From contig CBDBCF010000001.1 of the NCBI GenBank assembly GCA_965202985.1, positions 1,248,001 to 1,312,000 of the forward strand: DNA of 64,000 nucleotides, in the 5' to 3' direction. The notes below the pieces were generated by a model. The model had not been told where the DNA came from. It was given only the letters and a program-made list of their open reading frames with translations, and searched no databases. Source of the DNA: Longimicrobiales bacterium. Lineage in GTDB: Bacteria > Gemmatimonadota > Gemmatimonadetes > Longimicrobiales > Gaopeijiaceae. A program made the position numbers and the translations under genes. This document shows positions 37,512 through 56,771 of the stretch, one piece after another (position 1 is the first letter of the stretch; each line of letters starts with the position of its first letter).

Positions 37512-38326
37512 CTCGACGATTGCTCCTGCATGGGGGACGATGCGCATTGGACGGCTGTTGGACTGGGGGCAACAATGTACTTCGACTGCTCGGCGCCGGG
37601 AACGAAGCCGACGACCTCGTGGCCGCTGGACAGAAGGCGCACAAACGCTCGGCGCGTAGATGCACGCCAGCCCCGGGCCTCTTCGACCGAACCGCGTTCG
37701 ACGGCCTCGATGTCGGCTGGAATCGGTACTTCGACCGCATCCGGCGGCGGCGGCGTAGGGACGGGCGCGTGGCCGGCTTCCTCTCGCAGCGTCCATTCGA
37801 CCACGAATCGGTCGGTGCCCAGCTGGTGCAGTTCGCTGTTCGACGCCCCGTACATGTCGGGAACGTACTCGGCGACCCGAGCGCCCAGCCGGTTCAGGTT
37901 CAAGTGAGCGTTGCGCGAGACCAGCGGGTCGAACGTCCAGTACATGGTCTCGACGCCCAGCGCCAAGAGCATCTCCTTCTGCCGCATCTTGAGCCGCCGC
38001 CCGACGCCCAAGTTTCGCGCCTCGGGCCGCACCGCCAGCATGTGCGACCAGTGCGCCGGCCTCCCGTGCCGAAACCCCGAAATGCCGTACACCAGGCCCA
38101 CCAACCCGCCCTCCCCGTTGAAGGCGCCCACCGCGACGCCCCCCATCTTCGCCGTAATCTGCAACATGCTCGCCGGCACCACCTCCGAGAACGCCTCTCC
38201 CCAGGTCCTGCGCTGGAGCTCGACGCATGCGTCCATGTCGGCCCGGCTCTCGACGGGCCGAATCGTGATCTCGGGGGCGGGCGTTGCGCCGCGAGTGGGC
38301 CGGATCGTTGAGCTGGACTCGGTCAT
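37508..38326 (-). CDS. GNAT acyltransferase (D-amino-acid N-succinyltransferase-like)
   Basis: SHMLAV..R..GVG..LK, WTFDPL..RNA.LN..LGA, DMYG, TDRF. Confidence 0.8.
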   Translation of the reverse strand: MTESSSTIRPTRGATPAPEITIRPVESRADMDACVELQRRTWGEAFSEVVPASMLQITAKMGGVAVGAFNGEGGLVGLVYGISGFRHGRPAHWSHMLAVRPEARNLGVGRRLKMRQKEMLLALGVETMYWTFDPLVSRNAHLNLNRLGARVAEYVPDMYGASNSELHQLGTDRFVVEWTLREEAGHAPVPTPPPPDAVEVPIPADIEAVERGSVEEARGWRASTRRAFVRLLSSGHEVVGFVPGAEQSKYIVAPSPTAVQCASSPMQEQSSR

Positions 38327-38336
38327 GAAGTCGATC

Positions 38337-40871
38337 CTACGGCGCGGGACGCTGCTCGGCAAGTCGGGCCTGCTGCGGTGCTGTGAGATCTGCCGCCAAG
38401 CGCTCGATTTCCTGCAAGATGTCGTCTGCCACCTCCATTACCTCCACTGGGGCACGCACCGACTGTCCGGCACGTCTCCGTAACGCGACTATCAAAGGCC
38501 GCAGCGCCTGCGATTTGTCTCGGTCGGTATCCAACTCGTCCGCGAGAACACCCGGCGAAACGCCGGCAGCGACGAGGCCAACTGCCAACCTATGCAGGTC
38601 TGACAGCGCCGGCTCCTGATCAGATTCGAGCATCGCGTACAGCGCCCTGAACCCTTCGCGTCCGTGGTCGTCCATTCTGGCGTCGTAGTAGGTGAGCGTT
38701 CTTCCCCAGCTGGCTTGCCACCGCCAAGTCAATCCGTTGTCGTCCACGATGTCGCCGAATCGATTATCCAGGTCGCGATAGGACTCAAGAGCGTCATCCA
38801 TTCGCCCAAGTCTGCGCTGGGCCGAGCCTTTCACAAAGAGCGCGTATGCAACGCGCTTTCGCACATCGTCTTTGTCGTTGTCTTCAACATACGCTGCTGC
38901 TTCGTCGCATGTCGCTATGGCCTCTTTCGCGAGACCGCGCGTCATCTGAAGCGCCCCGATTTTGCTGTAGGCCGTTGCTACGTGTGGGCGTACCAGCGGA
39001 TCAACGGAACCGCGGAATCGGTCGACCAGTCCTCGCCAAGTCTTGAGGCTCGACTTCCATCTATCGTGATTCATGGCTTGCAATGTGCCTTTGTGAAGCA
39101 TCGCTTCCGCTACATGCTTGGCCAGAAAAGGCCGTTCGTCGCAACCATAGCGTCTGACTATGTCCTCAAACGACTCACGCGCTTCGACGCGACATCGGCC
39201 TAGTCGCACATGCAGGCCTGCTCGGTTGATAATCGCCGCCAGGACGACATCGAGCATTTCTGGATCACATTCGTACGTGGCAACAACCTCATCGTATATA
39301 GCGATTGCTTCCTTAGTATTGTTCAGTTTTTGCATGGCCGGTCCTTTGTTGAACAAAGCGATTGCTACCGCATCTCGTGCCTCTGGAGCAGCTTCCTTAG
39401 CGAAGGAATCGATGATGTCCTGATATACTTTCATCGCGGTCTTGTACCTGCCTAGATGATGGAGCGCCACTCCCTTCCTCAGCATTAGACGGGCCTTCTG
39501 GGGAAGTCCGATATTCCCATCATGTATTCCCCGGTCACAGGCGGCAACAGCGGCTTTGGGCGCAGATTTCAGAATGGCAGGATCACCTAGCACTGCACGG
39601 ATCATGCCTTCGCGAATCATTGGGTCGTGCCCGATTTCGGCGACCAACTTGGCAATCATGTCGGAGCGATGCGCCGTGCTGTAAAAGATTGCCATGAACC
39701 GGATCAACATCTGTACCACGGCAGCCTTGTCGCGCTTGCGGCGGATCTTGTAGTACAAGCAGTAGAGACGCTCCGCGGCCGCATACCGTCTCTTCCTGTT
39801 TCCACCTGTTGCCACTAGCGCCCCTCGTTCCACAAGGCGTCCGAGCATCGAAGACGCAAGCCGGACGTCCATGCGCGCCCGAGCTGCGATCTCCGACGTG
39901 CTGGAGGGTTGCCAAAGACTGATTGCGGCAACGTAGACGCGGCGCTCCGTCTTCGGAAGCCCTTCAAGGTGGTTGCGAAAGTACTCGGTGTGGTCGTCTA
40001 CAAGAGCCACCAGGCGTTCCATCAACCAACGAACGGACTGGTGTCGTCCAAGCTCCGCGACGATCGTCAACAGTCGGGGGCTCCCGCCGGTCAGAATCTC
40101 TAGGGGTCGCATGTCGCGACGTTCAACCGGCTCGCCGGAAACGACCTCCCACAGGCGCTTGCAGGCGTCGGTATCAAGCGGGTCCAAGCCAATCGTCATG
40201 AAGAGTTCGAAGAACGGTTCTCTTGCGTCGTCCAGCGCCTTGAAGCGACTCGTGGCCGTCGCCAGCAGCATGACGGCGGGCTCCATTTGGAGAGACTCGC
40301 GGAGTTGCCAGCCAAAGTCCGCGTCAACGTCGTCGCAAAGGTCCTGAAGGTTCTCGACCATGAGGACGAGCTGCTTGCCGAGCTGGTCCGCCGCCGTCAA
40401 CACGGTGGCCCGAACTCGGTCGGCATAATCTCGGTCTCGCCAAGCGCTCGACAGATCCGCATGCGCGGCTTCCAGTTCGTTGGCGAGATCGGGCGCGGTA
40501 GAGGCACACTCCTTGGCGAGGTAGAACAAAGTTTCGAGCCAGAAGTCGCCTATGCACGAGACTTCGTGACTTTCCTCCATGAAGCGAACGGGCATTAGGC
40601 GTTCCGAGTAGGCGGCGTGGGCACGCAGTTCCGCAGCCACTCTGGCCAGGAGCATGGTTTTCCCCCGGCCGCGCGGTGCTACTACAAGGAGATGCTGGCA
40701 AGCAGGCGCCCCGATGTTTTCGCGCAACACCTCCAACACAGCCTGCAGTTCGTGTTGTCGCACGACGAACTGACGGACCAGGTCGTCGTCAGACTGAAAC
40801 ACGCCCGGATTGAACTTCCGGACCACGGAGTCGGACGATGATTCCAGTTTAGAAGCCAATTCTCTGCTCAT
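38337..40871 (-). CDS. STAND-like P-loop ATPase + winged helix + TPR-like repeats
   Basis: APRGRGKT Walker A, LMVENL Walker B-like, TGGSPR GxP, HTH-like SEIAARARM..LGRLVERG, repeated A.ALFNKG/AMLHKG/ALFVKG helices. Confidence 0.82.
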   Translation of the reverse strand: MSRELASKLESSSDSVVRKFNPGVFQSDDDLVRQFVVRQHELQAVLEVLRENIGAPACQHLLVVAPRGRGKTMLLARVAAELRAHAAYSERLMPVRFMEESHEVSCIGDFWLETLFYLAKECASTAPDLANELEAAHADLSSAWRDRDYADRVRATVLTAADQLGKQLVLMVENLQDLCDDVDADFGWQLRESLQMEPAVMLLATATSRFKALDDAREPFFELFMTIGLDPLDTDACKRLWEVVSGEPVERRDMRPLEILTGGSPRLLTIVAELGRHQSVRWLMERLVALVDDHTEYFRNHLEGLPKTERRVYVAAISLWQPSSTSEIAARARMDVRLASSMLGRLVERGALVATGGNRKRRYAAAERLYCLYYKIRRKRDKAAVVQMLIRFMAIFYSTAHRSDMIAKLVAEIGHDPMIREGMIRAVLGDPAILKSAPKAAVAACDRGIHDGNIGLPQKARLMLRKGVALHHLGRYKTAMKVYQDIIDSFAKEAAPEARDAVAIALFNKGPAMQKLNNTKEAIAIYDEVVATYECDPEMLDVVLAAIINRAGLHVRLGRCRVEARESFEDIVRRYGCDERPFLAKHVAEAMLHKGTLQAMNHDRWKSSLKTWRGLVDRFRGSVDPLVRPHVATAYSKIGALQMTRGLAKEAIATCDEAAAYVEDNDKDDVRKRVAYALFVKGSAQRRLGRMDDALESYRDLDNRFGDIVDDNGLTWRWQASWGRTLTYYDARMDDHGREGFRALYAMLESDQEPALSDLHRLAVGLVAAGVSPGVLADELDTDRDKSQALRPLIVALRRRAGQSVRAPVEVMEVADDILQEIERLAADLTAPQQARLAEQRPAP

Positions 40872-42106
40872 CGAGCTCCCTGAGTCGGCATGCTTTCCAA
40901 AGGCACGGTGTGGCTTCCCGATCGCTTATACCACCAATCCTTCAGCCATTGGGAGCAAAAGCGGTATGCGTCGCCGTCAGGCTCCAAGTAGCCGTCATGG
41001 ACCAGTATGTCGATGATCGTCGTGATGCGCTTGTTCGCTTGTTCAGGGGAGCCAGCGTACGCGCGTTTCAACGCGGTTCGGGCGGCAGGCGAGAAGCTGC
41101 CTTGGATCGCCGCCTCCCCGAGGATCCGACAGGCAATCTCGTGGTCGAGACCGTCTCCGACGGCATCCTTCAGTCGTGTGTCGTAGTGCAACAAGTCCGT
41201 CTGGCCGACGGGTCCAAGCATTTCGGTTTGGTAGATGCACTCCACGTCTTCGGTTCTGATTTTGCCGGCGCCTCGCACCTCGGGCGATTGCCGCAGGCGT
41301 GCGAAGAAGCACTGGATGTGCTGGGGAATACCGATGCCGAGCCGGTTGTAGACGGCACCGGCAACTCCTTGCTCTAGCTCAAGACCATAGTGGGCGGCAA
41401 GGCGTCGGAAGCACTCTTCGCTGTCGGCGCGGTTCCACGGTCCCAGACGGAAGGGGTGTAGGTAGTTGATTCGATCCGGCAACCGGAGGCGCTGTACGAG
41501 CGGGACAAGGCCGATGCTTCCTGAGACCAGCAGGACCGGCGAAGGACCGACGACTTTCTGGAACGCTCCACGCAGCCAACTCAGGAACACGTCGACACGG
41601 TGGGCGCCCTTGTTTTGGCGGAGCAGACGAGTCAGGAATATGGGCAGCTCGTCGATGACCAGCAGGACAGGACTGTCGTGGTGGGCGCAAAGCGCGATCA
41701 GGTCGTCGCCTCGACTTTGCCAAGTCCCCTCGGTTAGGCTGGCGCGGAACTTGATTCGAAAGTCGTAAGCTCCGATTTCTTCAACCTTGCCGAACATCTG
41801 GCCGAGCCATCGCCCGGACGACTCGACAAGGCGTTTGCGGATGGATGTGCACGGGTAGACGGCCTCTGCGACCCTTGCGATCACGTCTTCCTCGGATTCG
41901 GCCCCCTCGACATCCGTGAACAGGCAGGTCCATCCTTGCTGCAACCGCTCCCCAAGCATCTGGGCCAGGCTGGTCTTTCCCATTCGGCGCTGGCCGGTGA
42001 GCAGAACGTGGTTGCCGTCGCGCACGAGCTGCTCCAGGCGCTCCAGCTCGTCGGTTCGGTCGAAGAAGTTGTCGCCGCTTACCCAGCGACCGGTAGATGA
42101 TTGCAT
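40868..42106 (-). CDS. STAND/archaeal-ATPase-like P-loop NTPase with C-terminal winged helix
   Basis: FFDR..E, GQRRMGKTS, LLVIDELP, SGSIG, GIP; ATGA overlap with downstream gene; start ATG 42106 (frame open to 42328). Confidence 0.85.
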   Translation of the reverse strand: MQSSTGRWVSGDNFFDRTDELERLEQLVRDGNHVLLTGQRRMGKTSLAQMLGERLQQGWTCLFTDVEGAESEEDVIARVAEAVYPCTSIRKRLVESSGRWLGQMFGKVEEIGAYDFRIKFRASLTEGTWQSRGDDLIALCAHHDSPVLLVIDELPIFLTRLLRQNKGAHRVDVFLSWLRGAFQKVVGPSPVLLVSGSIGLVPLVQRLRLPDRINYLHPFRLGPWNRADSEECFRRLAAHYGLELEQGVAGAVYNRLGIGIPQHIQCFFARLRQSPEVRGAGKIRTEDVECIYQTEMLGPVGQTDLLHYDTRLKDAVGDGLDHEIACRILGEAAIQGSFSPAARTALKRAYAGSPEQANKRITTIIDILVHDGYLEPDGDAYRFCSQWLKDWWYKRSGSHTVPLESMPTQGAR

Positions 42107-42184
42107 GCTGGCAGTCCTCTCGTGTTCGGCGTTGTACGAGCATCCGCGGTGGCCGGACATCCGGCTCGTTCTCCGGGTCGTTGA

Positions 42185-42213
42185 AGGATAGCGGTCAGCA
42201 AGCTCGCTGTCAA
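42185..42213 (-). promoter_or_regulatory. Sigma70-type promoter for the ATPase pair
   Basis: Minus strand TTGACA-N17-TATCCT, about 80 bp upstream of ATG 42106. Confidence 0.7.
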
Positions 42214-42257
42214 CAATCTTGCTGTCAGCAGTTTTGCTGTCATCGGATTCGCTGAAT
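42191..42257. repeat. 15-bp-period direct repeats of GCTGTCA (TGACAGC on minus)
   Basis: gcggtca 42191, gctgtca 42206, 42221, 42236, degenerate gctgaat 42251. Confidence 0.85.
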
Positions 42258-42360
42258 CTGCGGAGGCCAAGGGAGATCGGAGCCACCGTCGCCGACTGGC
42301 CCCGTTCGTCCCCGGTGACGCCGGTCATTCGCCCCTGGCGGGCCAGTCGCCAGGCGGCTC

Positions 42361-42400
42361 TGACAGATTCTTTGACAGATTCTACCCATTATCTGTCAAA
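42361..42400. promoter_or_regulatory. Inverted repeat TTTGACAGAT-N10-ATCTGTCAAA plus extra direct copy TGACAGAT; putative operator
   Basis: Perfect 10-bp arms 42371-42380 and 42391-42400; AT-rich patch in GC-rich DNA. Confidence 0.65.
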
Positions 42401-42603
42401 CGGACACCGGCACGGCACGCTCGGATCGCGGAGGCGTTCGTGCCGCTTCGTGGCCAACAAGTTCGGCGCGGCCGGGGGCCGGGCAGCTGTCGGGCGTGAT
42501 CGGTGGGCTTGCGCGAACGCGACCAGCCGGATGCGGCGGCGGACGCCGTCATCGGGTGCGACACGGTCGCGGAGTCGCTGGCCCGGACTCGCGAACTAGC
42601 CGA

Positions 42604-45600
42604 CTAGCCGCCCGCCCTCCATGTGGCCGACAGCTTGATCCGGCGGCCTCGGGCGCTGTGCGTGAAGGCGTCGAAAGCGTGTTCCCAGGCCACGAACGGC
42701 GCGGGAGTGTCCAGCACGTTGGCGACGGCGAGGGCGATGTCGAAGCCTCGGCCGGTGCGCCGCAACAGGCTCGCGTCCCAGGTGACGACGCGCGGGATCG
42801 TCTCCCACCGGGTGCCGACGAACTCCTCGTTGGTGTAGGACGAGACGGCGCTGATCCAGTTGACGAAGCTGTAGTCGCCTCGGTGAATCCCGGCCGAGAA
42901 CCGTGTCTTCCATTGCGGCAACGGCGGTGCCACCGGGTTGAACCAGTTCAGACGCCCCTCCGCCGACTGCGCGGCGAAGAGCTCGGCGCCGTTCACCTGC
43001 AGCGCCTTGACGCGGTAACGGCGCGTGTAGGTCCCGTCCGTGCCCAGAGAAACGACGCCCTGCCCTGCGGGAAGCCGCGCGCTCACGTGCCAATCGACCC
43101 CCGATGTGCTGGCGCCGGGCCAGTTCACGAGCCCCACTCGTATTCGCTCGATGTCCGTGGATGCGCACGTGCCGGTGCCCTGTCCATCCGGGCAGCTGAC
43201 GAACTCCTTGACGGCGTCCCGCAAGACGCCCCCGGCGTGGTACAACCTTGTCACTCCGGCGTAGGGCAGCACGTCGATCAGGTTGCGAAAGTCGTAGCTC
43301 CAGTAGTCCACGGCGGCCCGCATTCGAGACGACTGAACGCTGACGCCGACGTTGTACGTGAACGCCTGCTCGGGCGCTAGATCGGGGTTGCCGAAGTTGT
43401 CGGTGGCCCGCCACGCCTCGGCCTCGGGCACGTACACGGTCGCCGTGTTCTGGTGCTCGTTCACGTCGTCCACCGAAGGCGCACGAAAGGTCGTCTGCAC
43501 CGACGCGCGCAACGCCAGCGCATCGAACAGCTGCACGCGCAGCGCCAGCCTGGGGTCGAAGCTGCCGGCCAAGTCGTGGAACTCGTAGTTGGCGGCCGCC
43601 TGGGCGCTGATCCTGTCGCCGAACGTCAAGGGAACTTCGGCGAAGAACCGATGCACGGTCTGTGACGCGTCGTCCGGATAGAAGCCGTTGATGAGGCTGA
43701 ACGGGCCGATCTTTTCGCTGCAGCTCTGGTCGCCCAGCACGGGACACGGGTTGATCGACAGGTTGCCTGCGTCGTTGGGTTGCGCGGAGACGCCGAACCA
43801 GCGGAACTGGTATCCGGCCGCAAAGTTGGCCACGTCCTCCGCAAGTGTGCCTCTCACCATGGCGTCGGCAACCGCCAAGTTGGTCTTGCTCCGCAGATCG
43901 ACCTCGTCGAAGAGCCACGTCCGCAACTCGGGCGGGTTGGCCAGCGACGCCACGTAGCCTGGGTTCGCCCGCGTCTCGAACGGCGCTCCGGGTTGTTGCG
44001 AGTATTGGACGGCGCTGCTGAAGGGGTTGTAGTACATGCATCCGCCTTGCCCCGCCACCGCTCCGTTCAGCGGCCCCAACGCCATGCCGGAAGGGCTCGA
44101 CGCGTCCGGTACGACGAGCACGCCGCACTCCGGGCCGCCGAAGCCCCGAAACGCCAGGAACCGCCGGTGGGCGTACTCGGCGGGTAGGCTCACGTTGCCG
44201 GTGGCCCGCGAGTAGCCGACCGCCGCTTCGAGCACCAAGTCGTCTCCGGCCAAGGTGCCCGCGGTCCGACTGGCGGAAGCCGCGACGCGCAACGCCTGCG
44301 ACCCGCGCGACACCACGCGGGCGGGACCGCTGTTGCCGATCGTGCGCCCGTAGAAGTACCAGTCGCCTTCCAGGCACTCGGCGGTGGACGCGAATCCGGC
44401 GACGGCGGCTTCGTTGTTGCAGAAGTGCCGGCGTCCGGGGTTGCCCGGCGCCACTAGGTGCGCGCCGTCGTACTGGTAGATGGGCGCGAACGAGGGCGTG
44501 GTGGACCACTTCGGCGTCGCCGTTCGGGCGAACAGCGCCTCCAGGTGATAGTCTCCGCCGTCTCCCCATGCGCCGTTGAGTTCGCCGAAAGCCCGAACGT
44601 ATCTGGACGCCTGCTGCAAGTCGTCCCAGGCCTGATAGCGCATCCGGCAGGTCTCTTCTTCGAGATGGCCCCCGAAGTCTTGGCAAGCCGGGTCCACGAA
44701 CACGCGACCGCCGAACTGCGCCTTGCGCAGGGCTGCCGCAAACTCCTTGGGGGACTCGTCGCCGCCGAGCTCCGGGAAGAGGAACGCGCCCGGATTGCCC
44801 ACGAACGACCAGCCGCCGGCGCCGGAGACGAAGGGCGCAAGAGCGAACTCACGATCCCGAACCTTCAGGTATTGCGTCTGCAACGCTTCCGCAGAGACCA
44901 CGACGTGAGCGTTCTCGCCCAGCGGCCGGCCCCAGATGCCAGCGATGCTCGTGGCGCCGGAAGCGGCGTAGTATTCGTGCGCGGCGACGAACTCCACGCC
45001 TTCGAAATCGCTCCGCGTGAGAAAATTGGTCACGCCCGCCACGGCGTCGGAGCCGTACACAGCGGACGCGCCTTCCTTCAGGACTTCGATCCGGTCGAGC
45101 GAAATCGACGGAAACGAGTTCACGTCCACGAACCGGCCCCCGTACATCCGCACCGGCACGTAGGTGTGCCGTCGGCCGTTGAGCAGCACGAGCGTGCGCG
45201 AAGGCCCAAGGCCGCGAAGGTTCACGCTGGCGATCGTCTCGGGCACGGCGGCGGGCTGGGCCGTGTTGGCGAAGCTGTGCCGTTCGCCCAACGCGCCGTG
45301 GCTGGCGCTCAGGTTCTTGAAGAAGTCGGTGGCCTGGGGCGACCCCTGTTCGGCCAAGGTTCGGCGGCTGGAAACCGCGACCGAGTACGGCAAGGTGACC
45401 GGCGACTCCTCGAAGGCCGTGCCCGTCACCACGATCTCGACCAGTTCCAGCGCCGTGGAGTGGAGCCGCACGTCGACGGCAACGGTCTCGCCCGCCACGA
45501 CGATCACGGTTCGGACCACGCTCGCGAACCCGATCAGCTCCACATGGAGCTCCCGCGTGCCTGCCCCGACGCCGGGCAGCACGAACCGACCGCCTTCCCT

Positions 45601-45825
45601 GGACAGCACTCCGGTTCCCAGGACCGGGACGTGCACCTGGGCCGACGACAGCGGCGCGCCGGTGCCTGCGTCGGAAACCGTGCCGACAATGGTTCCGGTT
45701 TGGGCGCGCGCCTGCGAAGTCGCGGTTCCCAACGCCGCAGTGGAAGCAACGGAAGCAACCACCGAAAGGAGCAGCCGCTTGGCCGAAAGAGCCGGCCGCG
45801 GAGCTTTGCGCCCAGGCATTCGCAT
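42604..45825 (-). CDS. TonB-dependent receptor, no SusD partner
   Basis: VNLRGLG..RTLVLLNGRR, RIEVLKEGASAVYGSDAVAGVTNF, GNPDLAPE. Confidence 0.93.
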   Translation of the reverse strand: MRMPGRKAPRPALSAKRLLLSVVASVASTAALGTATSQARAQTGTIVGTVSDAGTGAPLSSAQVHVPVLGTGVLSREGGRFVLPGVGAGTRELHVELIGFASVVRTVIVVAGETVAVDVRLHSTALELVEIVVTGTAFEESPVTLPYSVAVSSRRTLAEQGSPQATDFFKNLSASHGALGERHSFANTAQPAAVPETIASVNLRGLGPSRTLVLLNGRRHTYVPVRMYGGRFVDVNSFPSISLDRIEVLKEGASAVYGSDAVAGVTNFLTRSDFEGVEFVAAHEYYAASGATSIAGIWGRPLGENAHVVVSAEALQTQYLKVRDREFALAPFVSGAGGWSFVGNPGAFLFPELGGDESPKEFAAALRKAQFGGRVFVDPACQDFGGHLEEETCRMRYQAWDDLQQASRYVRAFGELNGAWGDGGDYHLEALFARTATPKWSTTPSFAPIYQYDGAHLVAPGNPGRRHFCNNEAAVAGFASTAECLEGDWYFYGRTIGNSGPARVVSRGSQALRVAASASRTAGTLAGDDLVLEAAVGYSRATGNVSLPAEYAHRRFLAFRGFGGPECGVLVVPDASSPSGMALGPLNGAVAGQGGCMYYNPFSSAVQYSQQPGAPFETRANPGYVASLANPPELRTWLFDEVDLRSKTNLAVADAMVRGTLAEDVANFAAGYQFRWFGVSAQPNDAGNLSINPCPVLGDQSCSEKIGPFSLINGFYPDDASQTVHRFFAEVPLTFGDRISAQAAANYEFHDLAGSFDPRLALRVQLFDALALRASVQTTFRAPSVDDVNEHQNTATVYVPEAEAWRATDNFGNPDLAPEQAFTYNVGVSVQSSRMRAAVDYWSYDFRNLIDVLPYAGVTRLYHAGGVLRDAVKEFVSCPDGQGTGTCASTDIERIRVGLVNWPGASTSGVDWHVSARLPAGQGVVSLGTDGTYTRRYRVKALQVNGAELFAAQSAEGRLNWFNPVAPPLPQWKTRFSAGIHRGDYSFVNWISAVSSYTNEEFVGTRWETIPRVVTWDASLLRRTGRGFDIALAVANVLDTPAPFVAWEHAFDAFTHSARGRRIKLSATWRAGG

Positions 45826-45908
45826 AGACGGCTCCCTTTGGTCTCCGGCACACCGGCCCGATGGGGCGGGGAAAGGCGGCGCGCCTTGCGCTTCGCCGGT
45901 TCACTGGG

Positions 45909-45970
45909 ATTGTAGCGCCGTCGCAAAGCAAGCGTCAACGTTGACGGGAGCGGCCGGAACACCGTACGGT
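45909..45970. promoter_or_regulatory. Back-to-back sigma70 promoters sharing palindrome CGTCAACGTTGACG
   Basis: Minus: TTGACG-N18-TACAAT (45938-45909); plus: TTGACG-N18-TACGGT (45941-45970). Confidence 0.65.
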
Positions 45971-45978
45971 TTTCTCCG

Positions 45979-48900
45979 ATGAACGCCCGCTTCTTCGAAC
46001 AGCCCGTCCTCAACTCGCCCTACTCGGCGCCGGACCGCCACTGGCGCCTGGACGGCGACGGGCAACCCACCCACGAGATCGTCGCCAGCCGACGGCCCGC
46101 CGACTTCGCGACGCCCGTTCCCAAGCCGCGCCGCGCCGGCAGGGGCACCACGGGCACGGTCGTGGGCTCGGATCAGGCGATGCTGGTGCTGGACGAAGGG
46201 CGGGGCCTCTCCACCGCCGACCAGCAGTACCAGAAGGACGTGATCAACCGCGTGCGCGACCACGTGACCCGCTGGCGGGCCATCCCGGACCCCAACGACT
46301 GGCGCGTCACGCCCGAGACGGCGCGCATCCTGCGCCACTGGCGGTCGCACCGGTTCAGCGGCGTCCGCCCGTTCTTCTGCCAAGTAGAGGCCGCCGAGAC
46401 GGTCGTGTGGTTCACGGAGGTGGCGCAGCGAACCAAGGCGGGGCGCGAACTGCTCCAACACATGGAAGACGCCAGCCGCGACGCCAACCCGGACCTCTCC
46501 CGACTGGCGCTCAAGCTGGCGACCGGCGCTGGCAAGACCACGGTCATGGCCATGCTCGTCGCGTGGCAGACGATCAACGCCGTGCGCCATCCCGGCAGCC
46601 CGCGGTTCACGCGAGGGTTCCTGGTCGTCGCACCGGGCATCACGATCCGCGACCGCCTGCGCGTGCTGCTTCCCCACGACCCGAACAGCTACTACAAGTC
46701 CCGCGAACTGGTGCCGGCCGACATGCAGCGCGACCTGGACCGCGCCAAGATCGTGATCACCAACTGGCACGCCTTCATCCAGCGCGAGAAGATGAAGCTG
46801 TCGAGGGGCGGGCGGGCGCTCCTGCAAGGAAGGGGCAAGGGGCCGGCGATCCGCACTACGGAAACCGAAGGCCAGATGCTCCAGCGCGTGATGCCCGAAC
46901 TGATGGGCATGAAGCGCGTCATGGTCTTCAACGACGAGGGGCACCACTGCTACCGGGAGAGGCCGCCGGAAGCCAGCGAGGAGGGCCGTCTCCAGGGCGA
47001 CGACCTGCAGGAGGCCAAGAGAAACAAGGAAGCGGCCCGCGTTTGGATTTCGGGCCTGGAGGCGGTGCAGCGCAAGCTGGGCGTCCTGCGCGTCGTGGAC
47101 CTGTCGGCGACGCCGTTCTTCCTGCGCGGATCGGGCTACGCCGAAGGCACCCTCTTCCCATGGACGATGAGCGACTTCTCGCTCATGGACGCCATCGAGT
47201 CCGGCATCGTCAAGCTGCCCCGAGTGCCGATCGCCGACAACATTCCCGGCGGCGACATGCCCAAGTTCCGCAACCTGTGGGAGCACATCGGCAAGAAGAT
47301 GCCCAAGAAGGGACGAGGCAAGAACGCCTCCCCTTTGGACCCCCGCAATCTGCCCGTGCAACTCCAGACTGCCCTGGACGCCCTCTACGGCAACTACGAG
47401 AAGGTCTTCGAGCTGTGGAAGCAGGCCGATACCGAGGTGCCGCCCTGCTTCATCATCGTGTGCAACAATACGTCCACGTCGAAGCTCGTGTTCGACTACG
47501 TCTCCGGCTTCCTTATGCCGGACTCGGACAAGGGCGGCCAGCGGCTGCACAACGGCCGTCTCCCCCTCTTCCGGAACTTCGACGAGAACGGCGTTCGCTA
47601 CTCCCGCCCCCGCACGCTGCTCATCGACAGCGAGCAACTCGAGTCCGGCGAAGCATTGGACACCAGCTTCCGCAAGGCCGCCTCCTCCGAGATCGAGCAG
47701 TTCCGGCGCGAGATCGTCCAGCGCACCGGCGATCGTCGGCAAGCCGAGAACCTGTCCGACTCCGACATCCTGCGCGAGGTCATGAATACGGTCGGCAAGG
47801 CGGGCCGGCTGGGCGGCGGCATCCGCTGCGTGGTGTCGGTGTCGATGCTCACCGAGGGCTGGGACGCCAACAACGTCACGCACGTGCTGGGCGTCCGCGC
47901 CTTCGGAACCCAGCTGCTGTGCGAGCAGGTCGTGGGCCGGGCGCTCCGGCGGCAGTCCTACGACCTGAACGACGACGACCGATTCAACGTCGAGTACGCC
48001 GACGTGCTGGGCATCCCCTTCGACTTCACCGCCGAGCCCGTGGTAGCGCCGCCCCAGCCGCCCCGGGAGACGGTCGAAGTGCGGGCAGTGGTTCCCGAGC
48101 GCAACGCCTGCGAACTCCGCTTTCCCCGAGTGCAGGGCTATCGCGTGGAGCTTCCCGAGGAGCAGCTGTCCGCCACCTTCGACGACCACTCGACCTTGGA
48201 ACTCACGCCTGAGCTGGTCGGCCCTACGCGAACCCACAACCAGGGCATCATCGGCAAGGGCGTGGACCTGACGTTGGAAGGGTTGGAGAACGTGCGCACG
48301 AACACGCTCGCGTACGAACTCACCTGGCGGCTGCTCGAGACCAAGTGGCGGGACGCCGACGAGGAGCCCAAGCTGTACCTGTTCGGCCAGCTAAAGCAGA
48401 TCACCCGTCGCTGGTTGGACAGCCATCTGGAGTGCACCGGCGGCACCTTCCCAGCCCAGCTCATGTACCAGGAGCTGGCCGACAGGGCCTGCGAACTCAT
48501 TCACCAGGGCATCGTGTCGCGCCACGAGGGCGACAGCCCGGTCAAGGCGATGCTGGACCCCTACAACCCCTGGGGCTCCACCGCCACCGTGCGCTTCACC
48601 ACGTCCAAGACCCGTCGCTGGAAGACCGCCGCCGACCTCTGCCACGTGAACTGGGCCGTCTGCGACAGCGACTGGGAGCTGGAGTTCTGCCGCGTGGCCG
48701 AGGCCGACCCCCGCGTCCGCGCCTACGTGAAGAACCAGGGACTGGGCCTGGAGGTCCCCTACCGCGACGGCTCGGTGTCGCGCATCTACGTTCCCGATTT
48801 TATCTTGCGGGTGGACGACGGCCGCGGCGCCGACGACCTTCTGAACCTGATCGTCGAGATCAAGGGCCGTCGCCGAGAGGACGCCAACGCCAAGAGGAAC

Positions 48901-49032
48901 GCCATGAACGCCTATTGGGTACCTGGGGTGAACAACCTGGGCGGCTTCGGCCGCTGGGCGTTCGCCGAGATCACGGAGGCGGGGACGATGGGAGAAGCGC
49001 TGGACGCGGCGATTGCGGGAGGGCTCGGATGA
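45979..49032 (+). CDS. res: Type III-like restriction endonuclease/helicase subunit (BPTD_3080-like)
   Basis: LATGAGKT, DEGHH, SATP, MLTEGWD, EQVVGRALRR; C-terminal PDF...EIKG PD-(D/E)xK. Confidence 0.9.
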   Translation: MNARFFEQPVLNSPYSAPDRHWRLDGDGQPTHEIVASRRPADFATPVPKPRRAGRGTTGTVVGSDQAMLVLDEGRGLSTADQQYQKDVINRVRDHVTRWRAIPDPNDWRVTPETARILRHWRSHRFSGVRPFFCQVEAAETVVWFTEVAQRTKAGRELLQHMEDASRDANPDLSRLALKLATGAGKTTVMAMLVAWQTINAVRHPGSPRFTRGFLVVAPGITIRDRLRVLLPHDPNSYYKSRELVPADMQRDLDRAKIVITNWHAFIQREKMKLSRGGRALLQGRGKGPAIRTTETEGQMLQRVMPELMGMKRVMVFNDEGHHCYRERPPEASEEGRLQGDDLQEAKRNKEAARVWISGLEAVQRKLGVLRVVDLSATPFFLRGSGYAEGTLFPWTMSDFSLMDAIESGIVKLPRVPIADNIPGGDMPKFRNLWEHIGKKMPKKGRGKNASPLDPRNLPVQLQTALDALYGNYEKVFELWKQADTEVPPCFIIVCNNTSTSKLVFDYVSGFLMPDSDKGGQRLHNGRLPLFRNFDENGVRYSRPRTLLIDSEQLESGEALDTSFRKAASSEIEQFRREIVQRTGDRRQAENLSDSDILREVMNTVGKAGRLGGGIRCVVSVSMLTEGWDANNVTHVLGVRAFGTQLLCEQVVGRALRRQSYDLNDDDRFNVEYADVLGIPFDFTAEPVVAPPQPPRETVEVRAVVPERNACELRFPRVQGYRVELPEEQLSATFDDHSTLELTPELVGPTRTHNQGIIGKGVDLTLEGLENVRTNTLAYELTWRLLETKWRDADEEPKLYLFGQLKQITRRWLDSHLECTGGTFPAQLMYQELADRACELIHQGIVSRHEGDSPVKAMLDPYNPWGSTATVRFTTSKTRRWKTAADLCHVNWAVCDSDWELEFCRVAEADPRVRAYVKNQGLGLEVPYRDGSVSRIYVPDFILRVDDGRGADDLLNLIVEIKGRRREDANAKRNAMNAYWVPGVNNLGGFGRWAFAEITEAGTMGEALDAAIAGGLG

Positions 49033-49658
49033 CGAGAGACGACATCGTGTTGGCCGGTATGGCCGCCGCCGGGCCAAGCACCAAGTTCGATGCGGTGCAG
49101 CTGCAAAAGCTCTTCTTTCTCATCGATCGGGAGATACCGCAGCTGATTGGAGGCCCGCACTTCGACTTCAGGCCCTATCACTACGGCCCTTTCGACAGAG
49201 CCGTCTACGACGTACTCGACGGCCTGCTGGAATCTGGCGATGCGTCCGTTGACACTTCCTCCCGATATCCTCGGTATTCCCTAACCGCTCCTGGCGCGCA
49301 ACGGGGCGTCCGCTTCCTCGAGGAGATGCACGACAGCGCGTCCCACTACATGAACGAGGCTAGCAACTGGGTAGTGGCCACACCTTTCCAGCCTTTGCTG
49401 GCCGCCATCTATCGGCAGTACCCCGACATGGCGCGAAACAGCGTCGTTCCCCACTTGGCCAAGCCACACGCTCGGGCCACATTCCGCTATCCAACGCCTT
49501 CGTTCGCGTCTGGAATGGCGAGGGCAATCGATCTCTTCGGCACGCTAGACGACCTCGAGACCACGATCGGTGATCCAGAGATTGACGCGTTGGCGACGTA
49601 CAACGATTGGCGTGCCGTCGGCGAAGACATCGAGGCCGCGATGGGCCGGACAGATTAG
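49029..49658 (+). CDS. SocA/Panacea/YwgA-like winged-helix protein with extra C-terminal module
   Basis: ATG 49029 overlaps res stop; LQKLFFL...F.PYHYGPF motif. Confidence 0.65.
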   Translation: MTRDDIVLAGMAAAGPSTKFDAVQLQKLFFLIDREIPQLIGGPHFDFRPYHYGPFDRAVYDVLDGLLESGDASVDTSSRYPRYSLTAPGAQRGVRFLEEMHDSASHYMNEASNWVVATPFQPLLAAIYRQYPDMARNSVVPHLAKPHARATFRYPTPSFASGMARAIDLFGTLDDLETTIGDPEIDALATYNDWRAVGEDIEAAMGRTD

Positions 49659-49660
49659 CC

Positions 49661-50129
49661 GTGGCCAGGCGACTCTACACCGACGCCGAGTTGGACGCCC
49701 TGCGAACGATGCGGAAGCGTGTCACGAATCCCGGAGCACGCTGGGTCCCCAAGCCCAAGAAAGAAACCTGGTCACCGCCAGCGAATCTTTCGTGCCTCGG
49801 CAGTCGACGAGGATCTGGAGTTCTTGATCTTCCAGAGGGAAGGCCTCATGGACAAGCTTGATTTTTCCTGTGGACTTGTCTGCGTTTCACGTGGCGACCG
49901 GCTGATACTGGCACGATACAATGGCCCGGGACATGAGCATGGCGACATCACGTTTCGTCCGCACATTCATCGTGCTACCGAACAAGCTATCGCTGACGGC
50001 TTACGACCGGATTCCCATGCGCAAGAAACCCATCGCTTTGACTCACTTCAGGGTGCTCTCGCCTGCTTGACCGTCGACTGCGCCGTAAGTGGTCTGCATG
50101 CACCGTCTGATCAACCCTCGTTGTTCTGA
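49661..50129 (+). pseudogene. Frameshifted conserved hypothetical (DUF6978-like, His-rich HEH...PHIH)
   Basis: GTG 49661 frame MARRLYTDAEL...WVPKPKK; continues in +1 frame KPGHRQRIFR...LARYNGPGHEH..PHIH; break near 49760. Confidence 0.65.
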
Positions 50130-50130
50130 T

Positions 50131-50909
50131 ATGACCTTCGATATTGTCGCGCTAGAAAAGCTACTCTGCGAGCGTCTATGTCACGAAGTCAAGGTTATCG
50201 AACGCTTGACGGTGCTCTGATGATCCGTACACATTTTCGGTTCCCAGACGGCGATAACTTCCCCATTCATCTTGCGGCTTCGTCTTCCGGTGGATTGACG
50301 TTGTCCGACCGAGGACATACAATGATGCACATGAGTTACGAGCACGATGTTGATTCTTTTTTGGAAGGTACTCGCGGCATGCTACTGGAGCGAATAATGA
50401 CAGAATCAGGTTTGCAATGGGATGGTGGTGCCCTAAGTCTTGATACATCTCCTGAGCAATTGTCCGAAGCCGTCTTTGTGTTTGGTCAGACGCTGACGAG
50501 GATTTACGACCTTACTATGCTGTCGCGGTCGAACGTCGGGTCCACTTTCTACGACGATCTGGCAGATGTTCTGAGCGATCTAGTTGATGAATCGAAGCTT
50601 CAGAAAGATTATGAACCATCAGTGCCAAACTCGGCTGCATATCCGGTGGATTATCTGATCAACGGTAGGAACGACAACCGAATCTTCCTATATGGCGTGC
50701 CCAATCGAGACAAGGCACGACTGACGACGATTATGTTATCGCATTTTCATCGAAACAATCTCACCTTCGATTCCATCATCGTCTTTGAGAACCAAATCGA
50801 GATTCCCAGACTTGATCTCGCCCGACTGACGGATGTTGCAGGAGACATGATCTCGTCTCTTGCGGCAAAAGACGACCTGATGCGGAAGCTCCGGCGGCGA
50901 GTAGCCTGA
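50131..50909 (+). pseudogene. Frameshifted DUF1828(/DUF1829)-like protein
   Basis: ATG 50131 gives MTFDIVALEKLLCERLCHEVKVIER then stop at 50220; -1 frame continues DGALMIRTHFRFPDGD...LSDRGHT. Confidence 0.7.
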
Positions 50910-50911
50910 TA

Positions 50912-53872
50912 ATGAGCGAACGACGCCGTCCGCCGAAGCAGGTCGAGACCCTCACCCACGACGAGGCGTCCCGCAAGAACATCCCGACAGCCGAGCACCA
51001 GCCCGTCATGTCCGAAGGCGACCGTACGGCCATCCAAGTCGCCTACGAGCGTCGCAACCCCGACCTCGACCCCCAGCTGGTGTGGCGCGGCAAGGACATG
51101 CAGGACTGGTCCGACTTGGTCGTGCCCGCCCCGCCGCTGTTCATCCAGGAAAAGGTTCATCCGAAGGTCCTGATCGACGACCTTCTTCGGCAGAGCCGGG
51201 CATCGGAGGGTGCGGACGACCAGTTGCCAGACCTTTTCGCCGACTTCAACGGCCTGCCCGAGGACGACGCCAAGACCGAGTTCTACGAGCACGACGCCAA
51301 CTGGTCCAACCGGATGATCCTGGGCGACAGCCTCCAGGTGATGGCTTCCGTTGCCGAGCGCGAAGGCCTTCGCGGCAAGGTCCAGTGCATCTACATCGAT
51401 CCTCCCTACGGCATCAAGTTCAACTCGAACTTCATGTGGTCCACCACCAGCCGAGATGTTCGCGACGGCAAGCCAGAGCATATCACCCGAGAACCGGAAC
51501 AGGTGAAGGCGTTTCGGGATACTTGGCGAGACGGCATTCATTCGTATCTGACGTACTTGCGGGACCGACTGACTGTGGCTCGCGACCTGTTGACCGACAG
51601 CGGTTCGATCTTCGTGCAGATAGGAGATGAGAACGTCCACCGGGTGAGGGCGTTGATGGACGAAGTATTTGGGAAAGAAAACTACATAGTAACCATAAAA
51701 TTCTCCAAGACATCGACCTTGGGTGGCAATTTTATTGATGAAACTGTCGACTATATTGTATGGTACGGACGAAGCAAGGCGCATCTGAAATTTCGTCGTC
51801 CGTATCTCCAACGCGTTGTAGGCGGTGCCGGAGCGACGCAATACAAGTACGTCATGCACCACGGCGTCGTCAAGACACTGAAGACACCATCTCGCGACGG
51901 GCGCGGGCAGGAACGATTGTTTTCTCACGACAACCTCACTTCTCAGACAGGCAATCAGACGACAGTTTTTGGTTTTGGTTTGCTAGGACACAGGATTCCT
52001 ACTCCCAGAAAAGGCGGATGGAAAACGAACAGACAGGGTATGCAACGATTGATCAGGGCTGATCGAATCGTACGGTTCGGCAATACACCACGTTACGTAA
52101 GGTATTTTGACGATGCACCCTATTGGCCGCTTGGATCTGCCTGGCATGATACGAACATCAGCGGGTTCGGTGATGACAAGGTATACGTAGTGCAGACTCT
52201 GCGGAGAGTCGTCGAGCGTTGTCTCCTCCTAACCACCGACCCCGGCGACCTCGTCCTCGACCCCACCTGCGGCTCTGGCACCACTGCCTACGTCGCCGAG
52301 CAATGGGGCCGTCGCTGGATCACCATCGATACCTCTCGGGTCGCCCTTGCCTTGGCTCGGGCCCGCGTGATGGGGGCTCGCTATCCGTACTACCTACTCG
52401 CGGATTCGAGCGAAGGGCTGGCGAAGGAAGCACAGCTGGCCAGTACAACGCCCGACGACACCAAGGCGACCCACGGCGACATCCGCCAGGGCTTCGTGTA
52501 CGAGCGCGTGCCGCACATCACGCTCAAGTCGATCGCGAACAACGCCGAGATCGACGAGATATGGGAGGAGCATCGGCCCGCGTTGGATCGACTTCGAGCG
52601 AGAATCAACGAGGCACGCGACGAGGAGTGGGAGGAATGGCAGGTCCCACGCTACCCGGAAGAGCCTTGGGAGGATCAGGCATCGATACTCTTCGCGCGTC
52701 TCGAGAAGGAGTCACGCAAGACGAAGCCCAACACCTCCACTGTTCGCCGACTTCTCGACGAACTGAACGCGATCCTAGGGCGAAGCTACACGCTGGAATC
52801 GCTACCCGAGCGGCCTGCGGACCCGTGGCCGGAGGAGGATCATCAGGCGCTCCATGCCGAGTGGTGGAAGGGTCGAATCGCCCGGCAGAAGGAGATCGAC
52901 GCATCGATCGCAGCGAAGGCCAACTACGAGTACCTGTACGACAAGCCCTACGAGGACAAGCGCAAGGTTCGAGTGTCCGGCCCGTTCACGGTGGAGAGCC
53001 TGTCCCCGCATCGGGAACTGGGCGTGGACGAGAACGACGACCTTGTGGACCAAGTGGCCGAGCCCAGGCACGGCTACGGTCGCGAGCGGGATTTCGTGTC
53101 GGTCGTGCTCGACCACCTGCGCACGGCCGGCGTTCAGCAGGTCCACAAAGAAGACAAGATCTCGTTTTCTTCGTTGACGGCGTGGCCGGGCGACCTGGTG
53201 TGCGCGGAAGGCCGATTCGTCAAGAACGGGGGACGGGCGGAGCAACGAGCCGCAATCTTCGTCGGTCCGGAGTTCGGTACGGTCACGCGGCCCGACTTGG
53301 CGCGCGCCGCCCGAGAGGCCGCCGAGGCCGGGTTCGACCTGTTGATCGCCTGCGCCTTCAACTTCGGCCCCCACGCGACCGATTTCAACAAGCTGGGCCG
53401 CATTCGCGTGTTGAAGCCACGGATCAACGCCGACCTTCACATGGCCGACAACCTCAAGAACACGGGCAAGGGCAACCTGTTCGTGATCTTTGGGGAGCCC
53501 GACATAGACATCATTCCGGTCGGCGACGACGGGTCCGAAGACGACAGGGTTCAGGTCAAGATTCGAGGCGTGGACGTCTTCCATCCGGGCAGCGGCGAGA
53601 TACGCAGCGACGATGCCGACGGCATCGCCTGTTGGTTCATCGACACGGACTACAACGAAGAGAGCTTCTTCGTTCGTCACGCCTACTTCCTTGGCGCGAG
53701 CGACCCCTACAAGTCCCTCAAGACCAGCCTGAAGGCCGAGATCAACCCCGACGCCTGGGCCACGCTCCGTAGCGACACCTCTCGTCCCTTCCCCCGACCC
53801 AAGACGGGTCGCATCGCGGTCAAGGTGATCAACCACCTGGGCGATGAGGTCATGAAGGTGTTTCGGGCGTGA
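50912..53872 (+). CDS. mod: Type III-like amino-methyltransferase (Mod, beta class)
   Basis: GDSLQVM, IYIDPPY (motif IV), low-GC TRD, VLDPTCGSGTT (motif I), IAVKVINHLG. Confidence 0.92.
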   Translation: MSERRRPPKQVETLTHDEASRKNIPTAEHQPVMSEGDRTAIQVAYERRNPDLDPQLVWRGKDMQDWSDLVVPAPPLFIQEKVHPKVLIDDLLRQSRASEGADDQLPDLFADFNGLPEDDAKTEFYEHDANWSNRMILGDSLQVMASVAEREGLRGKVQCIYIDPPYGIKFNSNFMWSTTSRDVRDGKPEHITREPEQVKAFRDTWRDGIHSYLTYLRDRLTVARDLLTDSGSIFVQIGDENVHRVRALMDEVFGKENYIVTIKFSKTSTLGGNFIDETVDYIVWYGRSKAHLKFRRPYLQRVVGGAGATQYKYVMHHGVVKTLKTPSRDGRGQERLFSHDNLTSQTGNQTTVFGFGLLGHRIPTPRKGGWKTNRQGMQRLIRADRIVRFGNTPRYVRYFDDAPYWPLGSAWHDTNISGFGDDKVYVVQTLRRVVERCLLLTTDPGDLVLDPTCGSGTTAYVAEQWGRRWITIDTSRVALALARARVMGARYPYYLLADSSEGLAKEAQLASTTPDDTKATHGDIRQGFVYERVPHITLKSIANNAEIDEIWEEHRPALDRLRARINEARDEEWEEWQVPRYPEEPWEDQASILFARLEKESRKTKPNTSTVRRLLDELNAILGRSYTLESLPERPADPWPEEDHQALHAEWWKGRIARQKEIDASIAAKANYEYLYDKPYEDKRKVRVSGPFTVESLSPHRELGVDENDDLVDQVAEPRHGYGRERDFVSVVLDHLRTAGVQQVHKEDKISFSSLTAWPGDLVCAEGRFVKNGGRAEQRAAIFVGPEFGTVTRPDLARAAREAAEAGFDLLIACAFNFGPHATDFNKLGRIRVLKPRINADLHMADNLKNTGKGNLFVIFGEPDIDIIPVGDDGSEDDRVQVKIRGVDVFHPGSGEIRSDDADGIACWFIDTDYNEESFFVRHAYFLGASDPYKSLKTSLKAEINPDAWATLRSDTSRPFPRPKTGRIAVKVINHLGDEVMKVFRA

Positions 53873-54237
53873 GTGCCGTTCCGCCGCCTTCGCCCACGCG
53901 CACCGGGATGACCCGCAACGACGTCCTCGACTTCCTGCGTGCTCACAAGGCCGAGGTGGCACGCCGGTTCGGTGTCGGGGATATTGCTCTCTTTGGATCG
54001 TTTAGCCGCGACGAGGCCAAGGAGGACATCGACATCGACATCGACATCTTGGTCCGATTCGACCGCCCGGCGACGATCAGGTCGTTCTTCGGCGCCCAGT
54101 TCTATCTGGAGGACAGGCTGGGACGGCGAGTCGACCTGGTTACACACAGGGCCTTGCGGTCGGAGTTCCGACCCTACGTGGAGGCAGAGGCGATCCACGT
54201 GGTCGAGCACATGGACGGGGAAGAGGGCGAACCGTGA
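53869..54237 (+). CDS. Minimal nucleotidyltransferase (MNT/MntA-like)
   Basis: LFGSFSRDE..DID, LGRRVDLVT; alternative start ATG 53908. Confidence 0.88.
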   Translation: MSAVPPPSPTRTGMTRNDVLDFLRAHKAEVARRFGVGDIALFGSFSRDEAKEDIDIDIDILVRFDRPATIRSFFGAQFYLEDRLGRRVDLVTHRALRSEFRPYVEAEAIHVVEHMDGEEGEP

Positions 54238-55565: not shown

Positions 55566-55569
55566 AGCG

Positions 55570-55992: not shown

Positions 55993-56014
55993 CAGCGAAT
56001 GCGAAACAGCGTCG

Positions 56015-56761: not shown

Positions 56762-56771
56762 GGTGTTCCCG

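Follow-up and report, generated by a model that had tools for sequence, protein, structure and literature searches.

Genes and features of the locus

The analyzed window of 64,000 nucleotides from a Longimicrobiales bacterium contains on its minus strand two P-loop ATPase genes, here named A and B, with a putative operator and promoter upstream of A. The following features were located:

38337..40871, minus strand: gene B, 844 aa, with ATPase (residues ~16-292), winged helix (~305-380), TPR array (~414-760) and a conserved helical C-terminal cap
39732..39959, minus strand: winged helix of B, the probable operator-binding domain (18 K/R against 5 D/E; the counterpart in A is charge-neutral)
40868..42106, minus strand: gene A, 412 aa, a free-standing AAA+ ATPase of the STAND/ORC-like kind, in which Walker A (GxRRxGKTS) and Walker B (DE) are both intact; it has a lid and a charge-neutral winged helix
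42185..42213, minus strand: putative Sigma70-type promoter TTGACA-17-TATCCT, its -35 hexamer being the junction of two boxes
42195..42255, no strand: operator array of four imperfect palindromic boxes starting at 42195, 42210, 42225 and 42240 (15-bp period)
42445..45825, minus strand: stretch between cassette and island, outside the system, with a dispersed 155-bp repeat and the gene of a TonB-dependent receptor
45979..53872, plus strand: type III restriction-modification island of Res, inserted genes and Mod (NF046055 1297 bits; PADLOC MTase_III 1327 bits)

As a sequence-only reading of the window had stated, both genes are joined by an ATGA (40868-40871), in which the start ATG of B overlaps the stop TGA of A. 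We placed the start of A at the ATG at 42106, where the homologue consensus MxSSTGRW begins; the open frame extends upstream to 42328. The motifs given by that reading were found in A (GQRRMGKT, LVIDE and G-I-P at residues 259-261) as well as in B (APRGRGKT, LMVEN and GGSPR). Its TPR-like helices in B were recovered as TPR Pfam matches spanning residues 440-699 and as helical repeats from ~414 to 776 in the AlphaFold model. Likewise, no effector was found in A, B or 15 B homologues: A yielded neither an effector domain nor a membrane segment (Pfam, hydropathy), the 15 homologues carried no effector Pfam domain, and the ATPase of B begins at residue 16. An Rfam search of positions 37000-47000 gave zero matches. 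Public contigs were identical to long stretches of A and B with zero mismatches; two of them, X1 and X2, represent one sample, possibly the source of the window.

In A the residues K44, D152 and E153 were invariant in close alignments, and in 85 distant representatives K44 and D152 were conserved in 100% and E153 in 99%. The solved sequences nearest to A are the archaeal ATPases 2qen and 2fna. Its assignment to the STAND/ORC core is based on sequence, the single-sequence model being poor (pLDDT 48.5); clamp-loader AAA+ matches returned by a fold search with this model were set aside. Homologues of A were ~400 aa long within the lengths searched.

B retains an intact Walker A, while its Walker B reads xVEN (Glu to Asn); E173 and N174 were invariant in close alignments. 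The best Foldseek match of B was PH0952 (6mfv; E 1.4e-6, TM 0.28), and Avs3 was also among the matches. The best non-TPR fold match was the archaeal Orc1/Cdc6 heterodimer on origin DNA (2qby; Z 17.6, rmsd 3.8, 256 residues), and the core also aligned to TnsC, MuB, MalT and ZAR1. The pair shows the NBD-helical domain-winged helix order, Walker A/B, the GxP and the post-strand-4 polar motif that define the STAND/ORC clade. No conserved arginine was seen at the usual finger position in an alignment read by eye. For the C-terminal cap an atlas search gave scores of 0.81 or less.

The winged helix of B gave weak TrmB and DUF7342 profile matches and a match to MarR 2fa5 (E 0.0034), with low model confidence (pLDDT <50). 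In 8 of 11 pairs no other part of B had a lower dN. The TPR part evolved faster than the ATPase part in 10/11 pairs, at a dN/dS of 0.19-0.37, i.e. without positive selection. Homologues of B ranged from 491 to 1177 aa, and a Segatella partner of A with 298 aa was devoid of any TPR array.

The array region consists of 15-nt direct repeats and overlapping inverted repeats. Its boxes, which follow the family consensus CAACA-N4-TGTTG, scored 6.8, 17.0, 12.9 and 9.1 bits in order against the box profile. The motif was present upstream of A in all 60 non-redundant loci and was recovered in 22/22 further genomes, where the reversed pattern gave 0 matches. A spacer of 4 occurred at 167 sites compared to 7-16 sites at other spacers. 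In the 3.86-Mb genome only two strong tandem arrays were found, one at each of its two cassettes. The promoter pattern was found at 2 sites in 9.2 kb against 0.9 expected, so that the promoter call is weak alone; a TTGACA lay within 140 nt of the A start in 52/60 relatives.

Boxes were also found upstream of diverged B-only genes, on plasmids of Agrobacterium and Sphingobium, and of the second B copies at four Latescibacterota loci, while one B-only locus (L126) was without a box. Since the boxes are retained before diverged B-only genes, B is probably the repressor. Judged from sequence, it probably combines the roles of sensor and DNA-binding repressor.

Inheritance, surroundings and decay of the cassette

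The A-B pair belongs to a conserved mobile family of which thousands of homologues exist, and the same genome has another A-B cassette elsewhere. A B-type gene followed 54 of 56 intact A genes, the remaining two stopping at contig edges, so the co-occurrence on which the proposal of a pair depended was confirmed. The divergences of A and B were correlated (rho 0.94, 43 pairs). A and B are passed on together with the operator-promoter as a single mobile unit. Recent duplication as the origin of the two genes was ruled out, since a profile comparison of A with B aligned the P-loop only (probability 56%). A complex prediction for A and B residues 12-430 gave a score of 0.00, uninformative in either direction.

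The position at the edge of a defence island, as formerly described, holds in so far as a type III restriction-modification island is nearby, but this island begins at 45979, 3.9 kb from A. The dispersed repeat lying between them has 8 further long copies in this genome, and the TonB-dependent receptor gene is found elsewhere in the genomes G001, G002 and G003. In the congener G003 the A-B pair directly adjoins the same restriction gene. Enrichment near methylase genes was found as well: an N6/N4 methylase gene lay within 15 kb of 9/17 cassettes (2.0 expected) and, with shared sites collapsed, of 6/12 (1.4 expected). At 10 kb the signal was weaker (4/17 against 1.4 expected, P 0.044), and related cassettes are not independent. 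Acquired genes of any kind tend toward such regions. Plasmid copies adjoin Pycsar, Qat, WYL and Iet-type genes, and 5 of 19 scanned neighbourhoods were without a defence or toxin-antitoxin gene. No constant transposase or integrase neighbour was found across loci. Viral contigs contained no relatives and phages one weak, unannotated match; PHROG matches were confined to the P-loop.

The cassette is patchily distributed (24/301 genomes of the phylum, 4 genera). A survey of 300 genomes from the phylum gave 31 loci at which loss of either gene was scored. Both genes were intact at 11 loci, whereas at 15 loci A was broken or deleted and B was a single intact ORF. The rest comprised two loci with intact A and broken B, two with both genes broken and one at a contig edge; both genomes with intact A and broken B carry other B copies. 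A programmed frameshift near codon 34 of A, where three loci break, was rejected because the lesions differ (two frameshifts at different bases and one stop). Remnants of A had a dN/dS of 0.11-0.16, which suggests that the losses are recent and separate. Therefore the dN/dS of B without A cannot show stand-alone function; its medians with and without A were similar (0.13 and 0.17) and are uninformative on B function alone. The asymmetry of loss of A over B appears to be new. In a milder reading, a broken repressor B may lead to over-expression of A from a strong promoter, which would be costly without any toxicity of A.

Interpretation and alternative readings

The explanation we put forward, tentatively and at slightly less than even chances, is a self-repressed two-ATPase conflict cassette, probably anti-phage and of the abortive type, in which B would sense and restrain a costly ATPase A. 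Very likely the tandem palindromes that cover the -35 box are the binding site of B's winged helix, which would thereby hold the operon low. It is fairly probable, from what is known of STANDs, that B binds nucleotide and hydrolyses it poorly due to the altered Walker B, and that a foreign ligand is recognised by the variable TPR array and opens B so that repression is lifted and/or an oligomer with A is nucleated. Whether A constitutes the active, costly output we consider evenly balanced. As nuclease, NADase, protease and membrane domains are absent, two outputs would be the likeliest: an oligomer rich in A that turns over ATP, or an ORC-like assembly which forms on DNA or on a protein of the host and brings the infected cell to a halt.

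The role of helper or executor ATPase suggested beforehand is thus kept in part: the preferential loss of A (15 against 2 loci) fits an executor, but the operator that makes B a probable repressor had been missed.

Alternatively, B might be a ligand-sensing transcription regulator of the MalT/PH0952-like STAND type, acting on its own and neighbouring defence promoters with A as a dispensable co-factor ATPase. That B has stayed intact after the loss of A at 15 loci, and stands by itself on two plasmids, would agree with this, but the B-only loci are young and are thus no proof of stand-alone function. The best Foldseek match PH0952 is a predicted transcription factor, several cassettes stand in divergent orientation to restriction genes, and the Agrobacterium plasmid has three boxes in the interval that separates B from a divergent Pycsar operon. 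On the other hand, neighbour genes and their orientation vary freely between loci, and array scans of this and other genomes did not support a regulon beyond the cassette: this genome has no further array, and among 20 inspected stray arrays outside known cassettes in other genomes 4 adjoin A or B remnants and the others unrelated genes without a common target. We regard such a regulator as unlikely.

Gene overlap, autoregulatory palindromes, the patchy mobile spread with plasmid copies and a toxin-first loss pattern are equally features of a selfish addiction module, with A as toxin-like ATPase and B as antitoxin-repressor without invader sensing. But for a plain antitoxin, carrying a big TPR array of variable length would be a strange expense, A precedes B in the gene order, and no toxin fold was found; this reading is somewhat more doubtful still.

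A host- or metabolite-sensing signalling module outside conflict, whose island position reflects horizontal traffic only, seems improbable. Some loci lie among metabolic genes, no effector was found, and 391 of 589 STAND clades are non-defensive in the available part of the classification of Lee et al.; against this stand the frequent decay, the missing regulon and a same-site replacement in congeners (identity of 65-66% in the cassette and 77-85% in the flanks). Hardly credible is a DNA-loading pair of the ORC/Cdc6 or TnsC kind, in which the repeats would be an origin of replication or the end of an element. The B ATPase and winged helix do align to 2qby, TnsC and MuB, but the boxes occur upstream only and over the promoter, and neither a constant transposase or integrase neighbour, nor relatives in viral contigs and annotated phages, nor a conserved arginine at the finger position were found.

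In characterised antiviral STANDs the action comes from an enzyme or pore domain fused to them, in regulatory STANDs from an added helix-turn-helix. The proposed self-repressed conflict cassette could, though this is doubtful, represent a novel immune receptor pair, in which an NLR-like B would unite sensor, antitoxin and own repressor by means of the NOD winged helix and a bare ORC-like A would be an executor without added enzyme. If true, it would provide a prokaryotic test case for sensor-helper logic. With an operator sequence, a predicted binder and a predicted costly gene, the system is directly testable.

Comparison with known systems

In agreement with the sequence-only reading, which could name no system, none of the PADLOC, NCBIfam and nSTAND2 models fitted. 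PADLOC (model set dated 2023) and NCBIfam gave no full-length match and only P-loop-sized ones (PDC-S01, E 1e-4; DS8, E 0.0035), and 14 homologues compared with named-system models gave one generic TPR match. Literature searches found no paper describing the A-B pair, and the accessible part of a Streptococcus islands preprint contains no such system. Six homologue accessions were missing from 7 supplements of PMC13581612, the large clade tables not being among them; a search of 12 files of PMC8195603 for five accessions was likewise negative. A and B may sit unnamed within the 589 clades of PMC13581612.

According to the available text of Kaur et al. 2021 (PMC8195603), two-STAND operons have already been predicted for nSTAND2. 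These are mobile two-gene operons too, with a STAND-like NTPase in each gene, weakened NTP motifs in one and a predicted hetero-oligomer. There, the inactive partner is fused to an effector (GT4 or HEPN) and an arginine finger is present in each of the two, whereas the present pair is without effector, and B keeps Walker A and adds a wHTH and TPRs. PF20702 (nSTAND2) had no match at E 0.1 in A, B or the whole genome.

With Avs and bNACHT proteins, as described in the accessible parts of bioRxiv 10.64898/2026.01.04.697583 and PMC13581612, B shares the NTPase-WHD-TPR layout and a variable TPR sensor. Avs are there single genes with an N-terminal effector, while B begins at the ATPase and comes with a separate ATPase as partner and an operator of its own; the PADLOC Avs models gave no match. 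The PH0952/MalT-type regulators similarly combine a NOD with a TPR sensor and have a transcriptional role, but in the available text of PMC6468293 they bind DNA by a separate terminal HTH and act alone. The DNA binder proposed here from sequence would be the winged helix of the NOD itself.

The MNS proteins Npun2340/2341 are early-branching STAND-like ATPases. The pair, which showed only weak AAA_35 matches (E 0.012 in B; among atlas neighbours of A), may belong to this clade. Known members of it carry N-terminal effectors or WD40 repeats. Palindromic operators at defence loci are also known from the BrxR/CapW WYL proteins and RptR; as far as the available sources describe them, these have unrelated folds and regulate other systems, whereas the arrays here track the cassette itself.

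The proposal of a paired-NLR-like system is supported in so far as the genes co-occur and co-diverge, but since the best non-TPR fold of B is Orc1/Cdc6 and not an NLR, the label is an analogy. Archaeal Orc1/Cdc6 and the MJ-type 'archaeal ATPases' (PF01637) share with the pair the AAA+ and winged helix core, two paralogues and tandem DNA sites. In contrast, the pair has a TPR array, promoter-overlapping boxes and an accessory, decaying bacterial distribution, in 24 of 301 genomes and often broken, other than that of a core-genome initiator. If our interpretation is true, the operator-binding core winged helix and the bare ATPase partner would link the DNA-binding ORC/Cdc6 ATPases to NLR-type receptors.

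Composition and inheritance of the gene pair

The analyzed cassette consists of two genes and an operator-promoter, located in the window as follows.

38337-40871, minus strand: gene B (844 aa), ATPase with winged helix and TPR array
40868-42106, minus strand: gene A (412 aa), STAND/ORC-like AAA+ ATPase
42195-42255: operator array of four boxes, a junction of boxes forming the -35 hexamer

The sequence-only reading had described coupled ATPases joined by an ATGA overlap and lacking an effector. The overlap was confirmed in the window sequence, and domain searches agreed on the second point, as neither an effector nor a membrane segment was found. Third-position GC was 0.73 in A and 0.66 in B and higher in the flanks (0.84-0.91). 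Pfam matches of the pair to AAA_16, AAA_22 and ATPase_2 were sub-threshold or borderline; TPRs were matched in B.

The motif GxRRxGKTS and the DE were kept by A in 85 distant representatives, and its homologues (best 120) were 405-426 aa long. In B, Walker A was kept and Walker B was EN or DN in all 57 aligned rows of the TPR type, DE being found among B-type partners solely in a short Segatella protein. From established AAA+ chemistry, B is predicted to retain ATP binding with poor hydrolysis. The Segatella plasmid carries a minimal form (L038:8974-11021) located behind a WYL gene, in which the partner of A is an ATPase-winged-helix protein of 298 aa that keeps an intact Walker B but lacks TPRs.

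The structure model of B (mean pLDDT 80.9, low at residues 287-373) had PH0952 as top Foldseek match and, outside the TPRs, aligned best to the DNA-bound Orc1/Cdc6 heterodimer (Z 17.6, rmsd 3.8, 256 residues). ATPase and winged helix were strongly conserved, as was the helical C-terminal cap; the TPR part varied in sequence and length.

Among 8000 candidates scored, 1760 were homologues of A and, among 8000, 2964 of the B ATPase region; an A profile search gave 581 clusters (50% identity, E up to 1e-30). Hosts among named records included Gemmatimonadota, Alpha- and Gammaproteobacteria, Latescibacterota, Binatia and Acidobacteriota, with plasmid-borne relatives in Clostridium, Moraxella and Segatella. 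A second, distant copy in the window's genome (C1:2548921-2551796; 35% and 40% identity for A and B) adjoins a type I restriction gene.

The proposed pairing was upheld: a B-type gene immediately followed A in 54 of 56 intact-A loci, which are partly redundant and include the weakly scoring Segatella partner, and the other two stopped at contig edges. Pairwise identities of A and B correlated with rho 0.94 (43 pairs) and 0.71 (32 closest pairs), values reached by 0 of 2000 permutations, which demonstrates co-inheritance rather than contact. The pair is real and conserved and, on this sequence evidence, co-inherited. A different paired family, with tandem weakly A-like ATPases encoded by a short gene and a long gene with a C-terminal ATPase, was seen at L106, L109, L117 and L120-L124.

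The operator and its predicted binder

Regions upstream of A were dominated by six-mers of CAACA/TGTTG. The palindromic box CAACA-N4-TGTTG (up to 2 mismatches) was present in 60/60 non-redundant regions and in at least two copies in 55; the motif was derived from these very regions, a set that excluded four distant loci on plasmids and the window itself. Consecutive boxes were exactly 15 bp apart in 73 cases; a spacer of 4 gave 167 sites and other spacers 7-16. Independently, boxes were found at 26 of 28 newly found B-anchored loci and in 22/22 genomes (reversed pattern, 0 matches). Distant loci had altered palindromes of the same geometry, e.g. CTATA-N4-TATAG in Moraxella. Within the window's genome strong tandem arrays were restricted to its two cassettes (32.9 and 31.6 bits; next best 16.1).

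Boxes also preceded B without A directly in front on two alphaproteobacterial plasmids (37% identity; plasmid sequences only), as well as second B copies downstream of the pair at four related Latescibacterota loci (L025, L027, L031, L032); the B gene of L126 had no box. Since boxes precede B genes lacking A in front and the winged helix of B is basic, this points to B as the predicted binder. Boxes surviving simple deletion of A were not counted as independent evidence here. Arrays off intact cassettes (L206-L225) are probably promoter relics; next to them lay remnants of the cassette, YhgA-like transposases, abiEi or a vapBC pair.

Unequal loss of A and B

Searches of 301 genomes with each protein matched B in 24 and A in 16 (4 of 127 genera). 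Both genes were intact at 11 of 31 loci outside the window's genome. At 15, A was broken or deleted and B remained one uninterrupted ORF reaching from the ATPase through the C-terminal cap; the reverse, intact A with broken B, occurred at 2, both were broken at 2, and 1 was truncated by a contig end. Random damage should strike B twice as often as A (nominal binomial P 4e-6, inflated by kin). Twelve of the 15 cases involve deletions, and three are lone frameshifts and possible assembly errors. The losses of A appear recent and repeated, because the lesions differ between loci and dN/dS is still 0.11-0.16 in the remnants of A from four related loci. A was damaged in the same way at loci of other phyla. 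At L025 an insertion sequence interrupts A, and at L032 A is almost wholly deleted.

The asymmetry fits a costly A that would be held back by B; a simple derepression cost fits as well. The sequences themselves show the co-inheritance, the operator and the biased loss. From them we infer that B most likely represses the operon through predicted DNA binding, that its TPRs would sense a foreign ligand, and that A, putatively toxic and in presumed contact with B, would give the output once released.

Genomic setting and comparison with known systems

The position at a defence-island edge, as read from the sequence, is the ancestral setting. In the congener G003, GNAT is followed by B, A and the restriction gene; G001 carries its cassette at this position too, and G002 retains there a B tail, one box and restriction fragments only. 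The TonB gene now lying between pair and island is located elsewhere in all three.

Cassettes were enriched near methylase genes. Of 17 cassettes, 4, 9, 9 and 10 were within 10, 15, 20 and 30 kb of methylase genes (expected 1.4, 2.0, 2.7 and 3.8), based on genome-wide methylase positions in 13 genomes and a uniform null, with G061 left out and 12 weak methylase matches unlisted. With shared sites collapsed, 6 of 12 lay within 15 kb (expected 1.4). Nineteen scanned neighbourhoods contained restriction genes (6), other defence-type or toxin-antitoxin genes (8) or neither (5), counts that carry no background rate; a second set of 20 held restriction, nuclease and toxin-antitoxin genes and many transposase genes. 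On two alphaproteobacterial plasmids (L033:8811-8971, Agrobacterium, and L034) B-only genes adjoin Pycsar systems, in one case divergently, with three boxes in the gap between them, and in the other convergently; the ATSRF motif has been lost from both B genes.

Further features of the window were:

42358-42400: inverted repeat of 10 bp without mismatches, TTTGACAGAT-N10-ATCTGTCAAA, plus one more direct copy; the genome has two partial look-alikes at other positions
42445-42601: dispersed repeat (~155 bp) of which the genome has 8 other long copies (81-85% identity) and G001 many, often clustered; no Rfam match or unusual fold
49029-50909: insertion of three genes separating type III res from mod; their products are a PDC-M19A/DarG-like protein (209 aa), a protein of 136 aa that had no matches and a DUF1828 (PDC-M24B-like) protein
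54234-58496: ABC-type ATPase (NsnB/PDC-M55A-like), small PIN-like ORF (by sequence reading) and 574-aa PDC-M55C/HEC-05-like protein, possibly a further defence system

PADLOC and NCBIfam gave P-loop or TPR fragments only for A and B, in agreement with the earlier failure to assign a named system. No description of the pair was found in the literature covered, and its ATPases may be listed without a name among the clades of a published table; the pair is apparently undescribed. As a candidate in function, it widens the range of paired STAND systems. The cassette resembles a sensor-executor STAND pair with autoregulation in the style of toxin-antitoxin systems; it differs from nSTAND2 and, since it carries no effector, from Avs.
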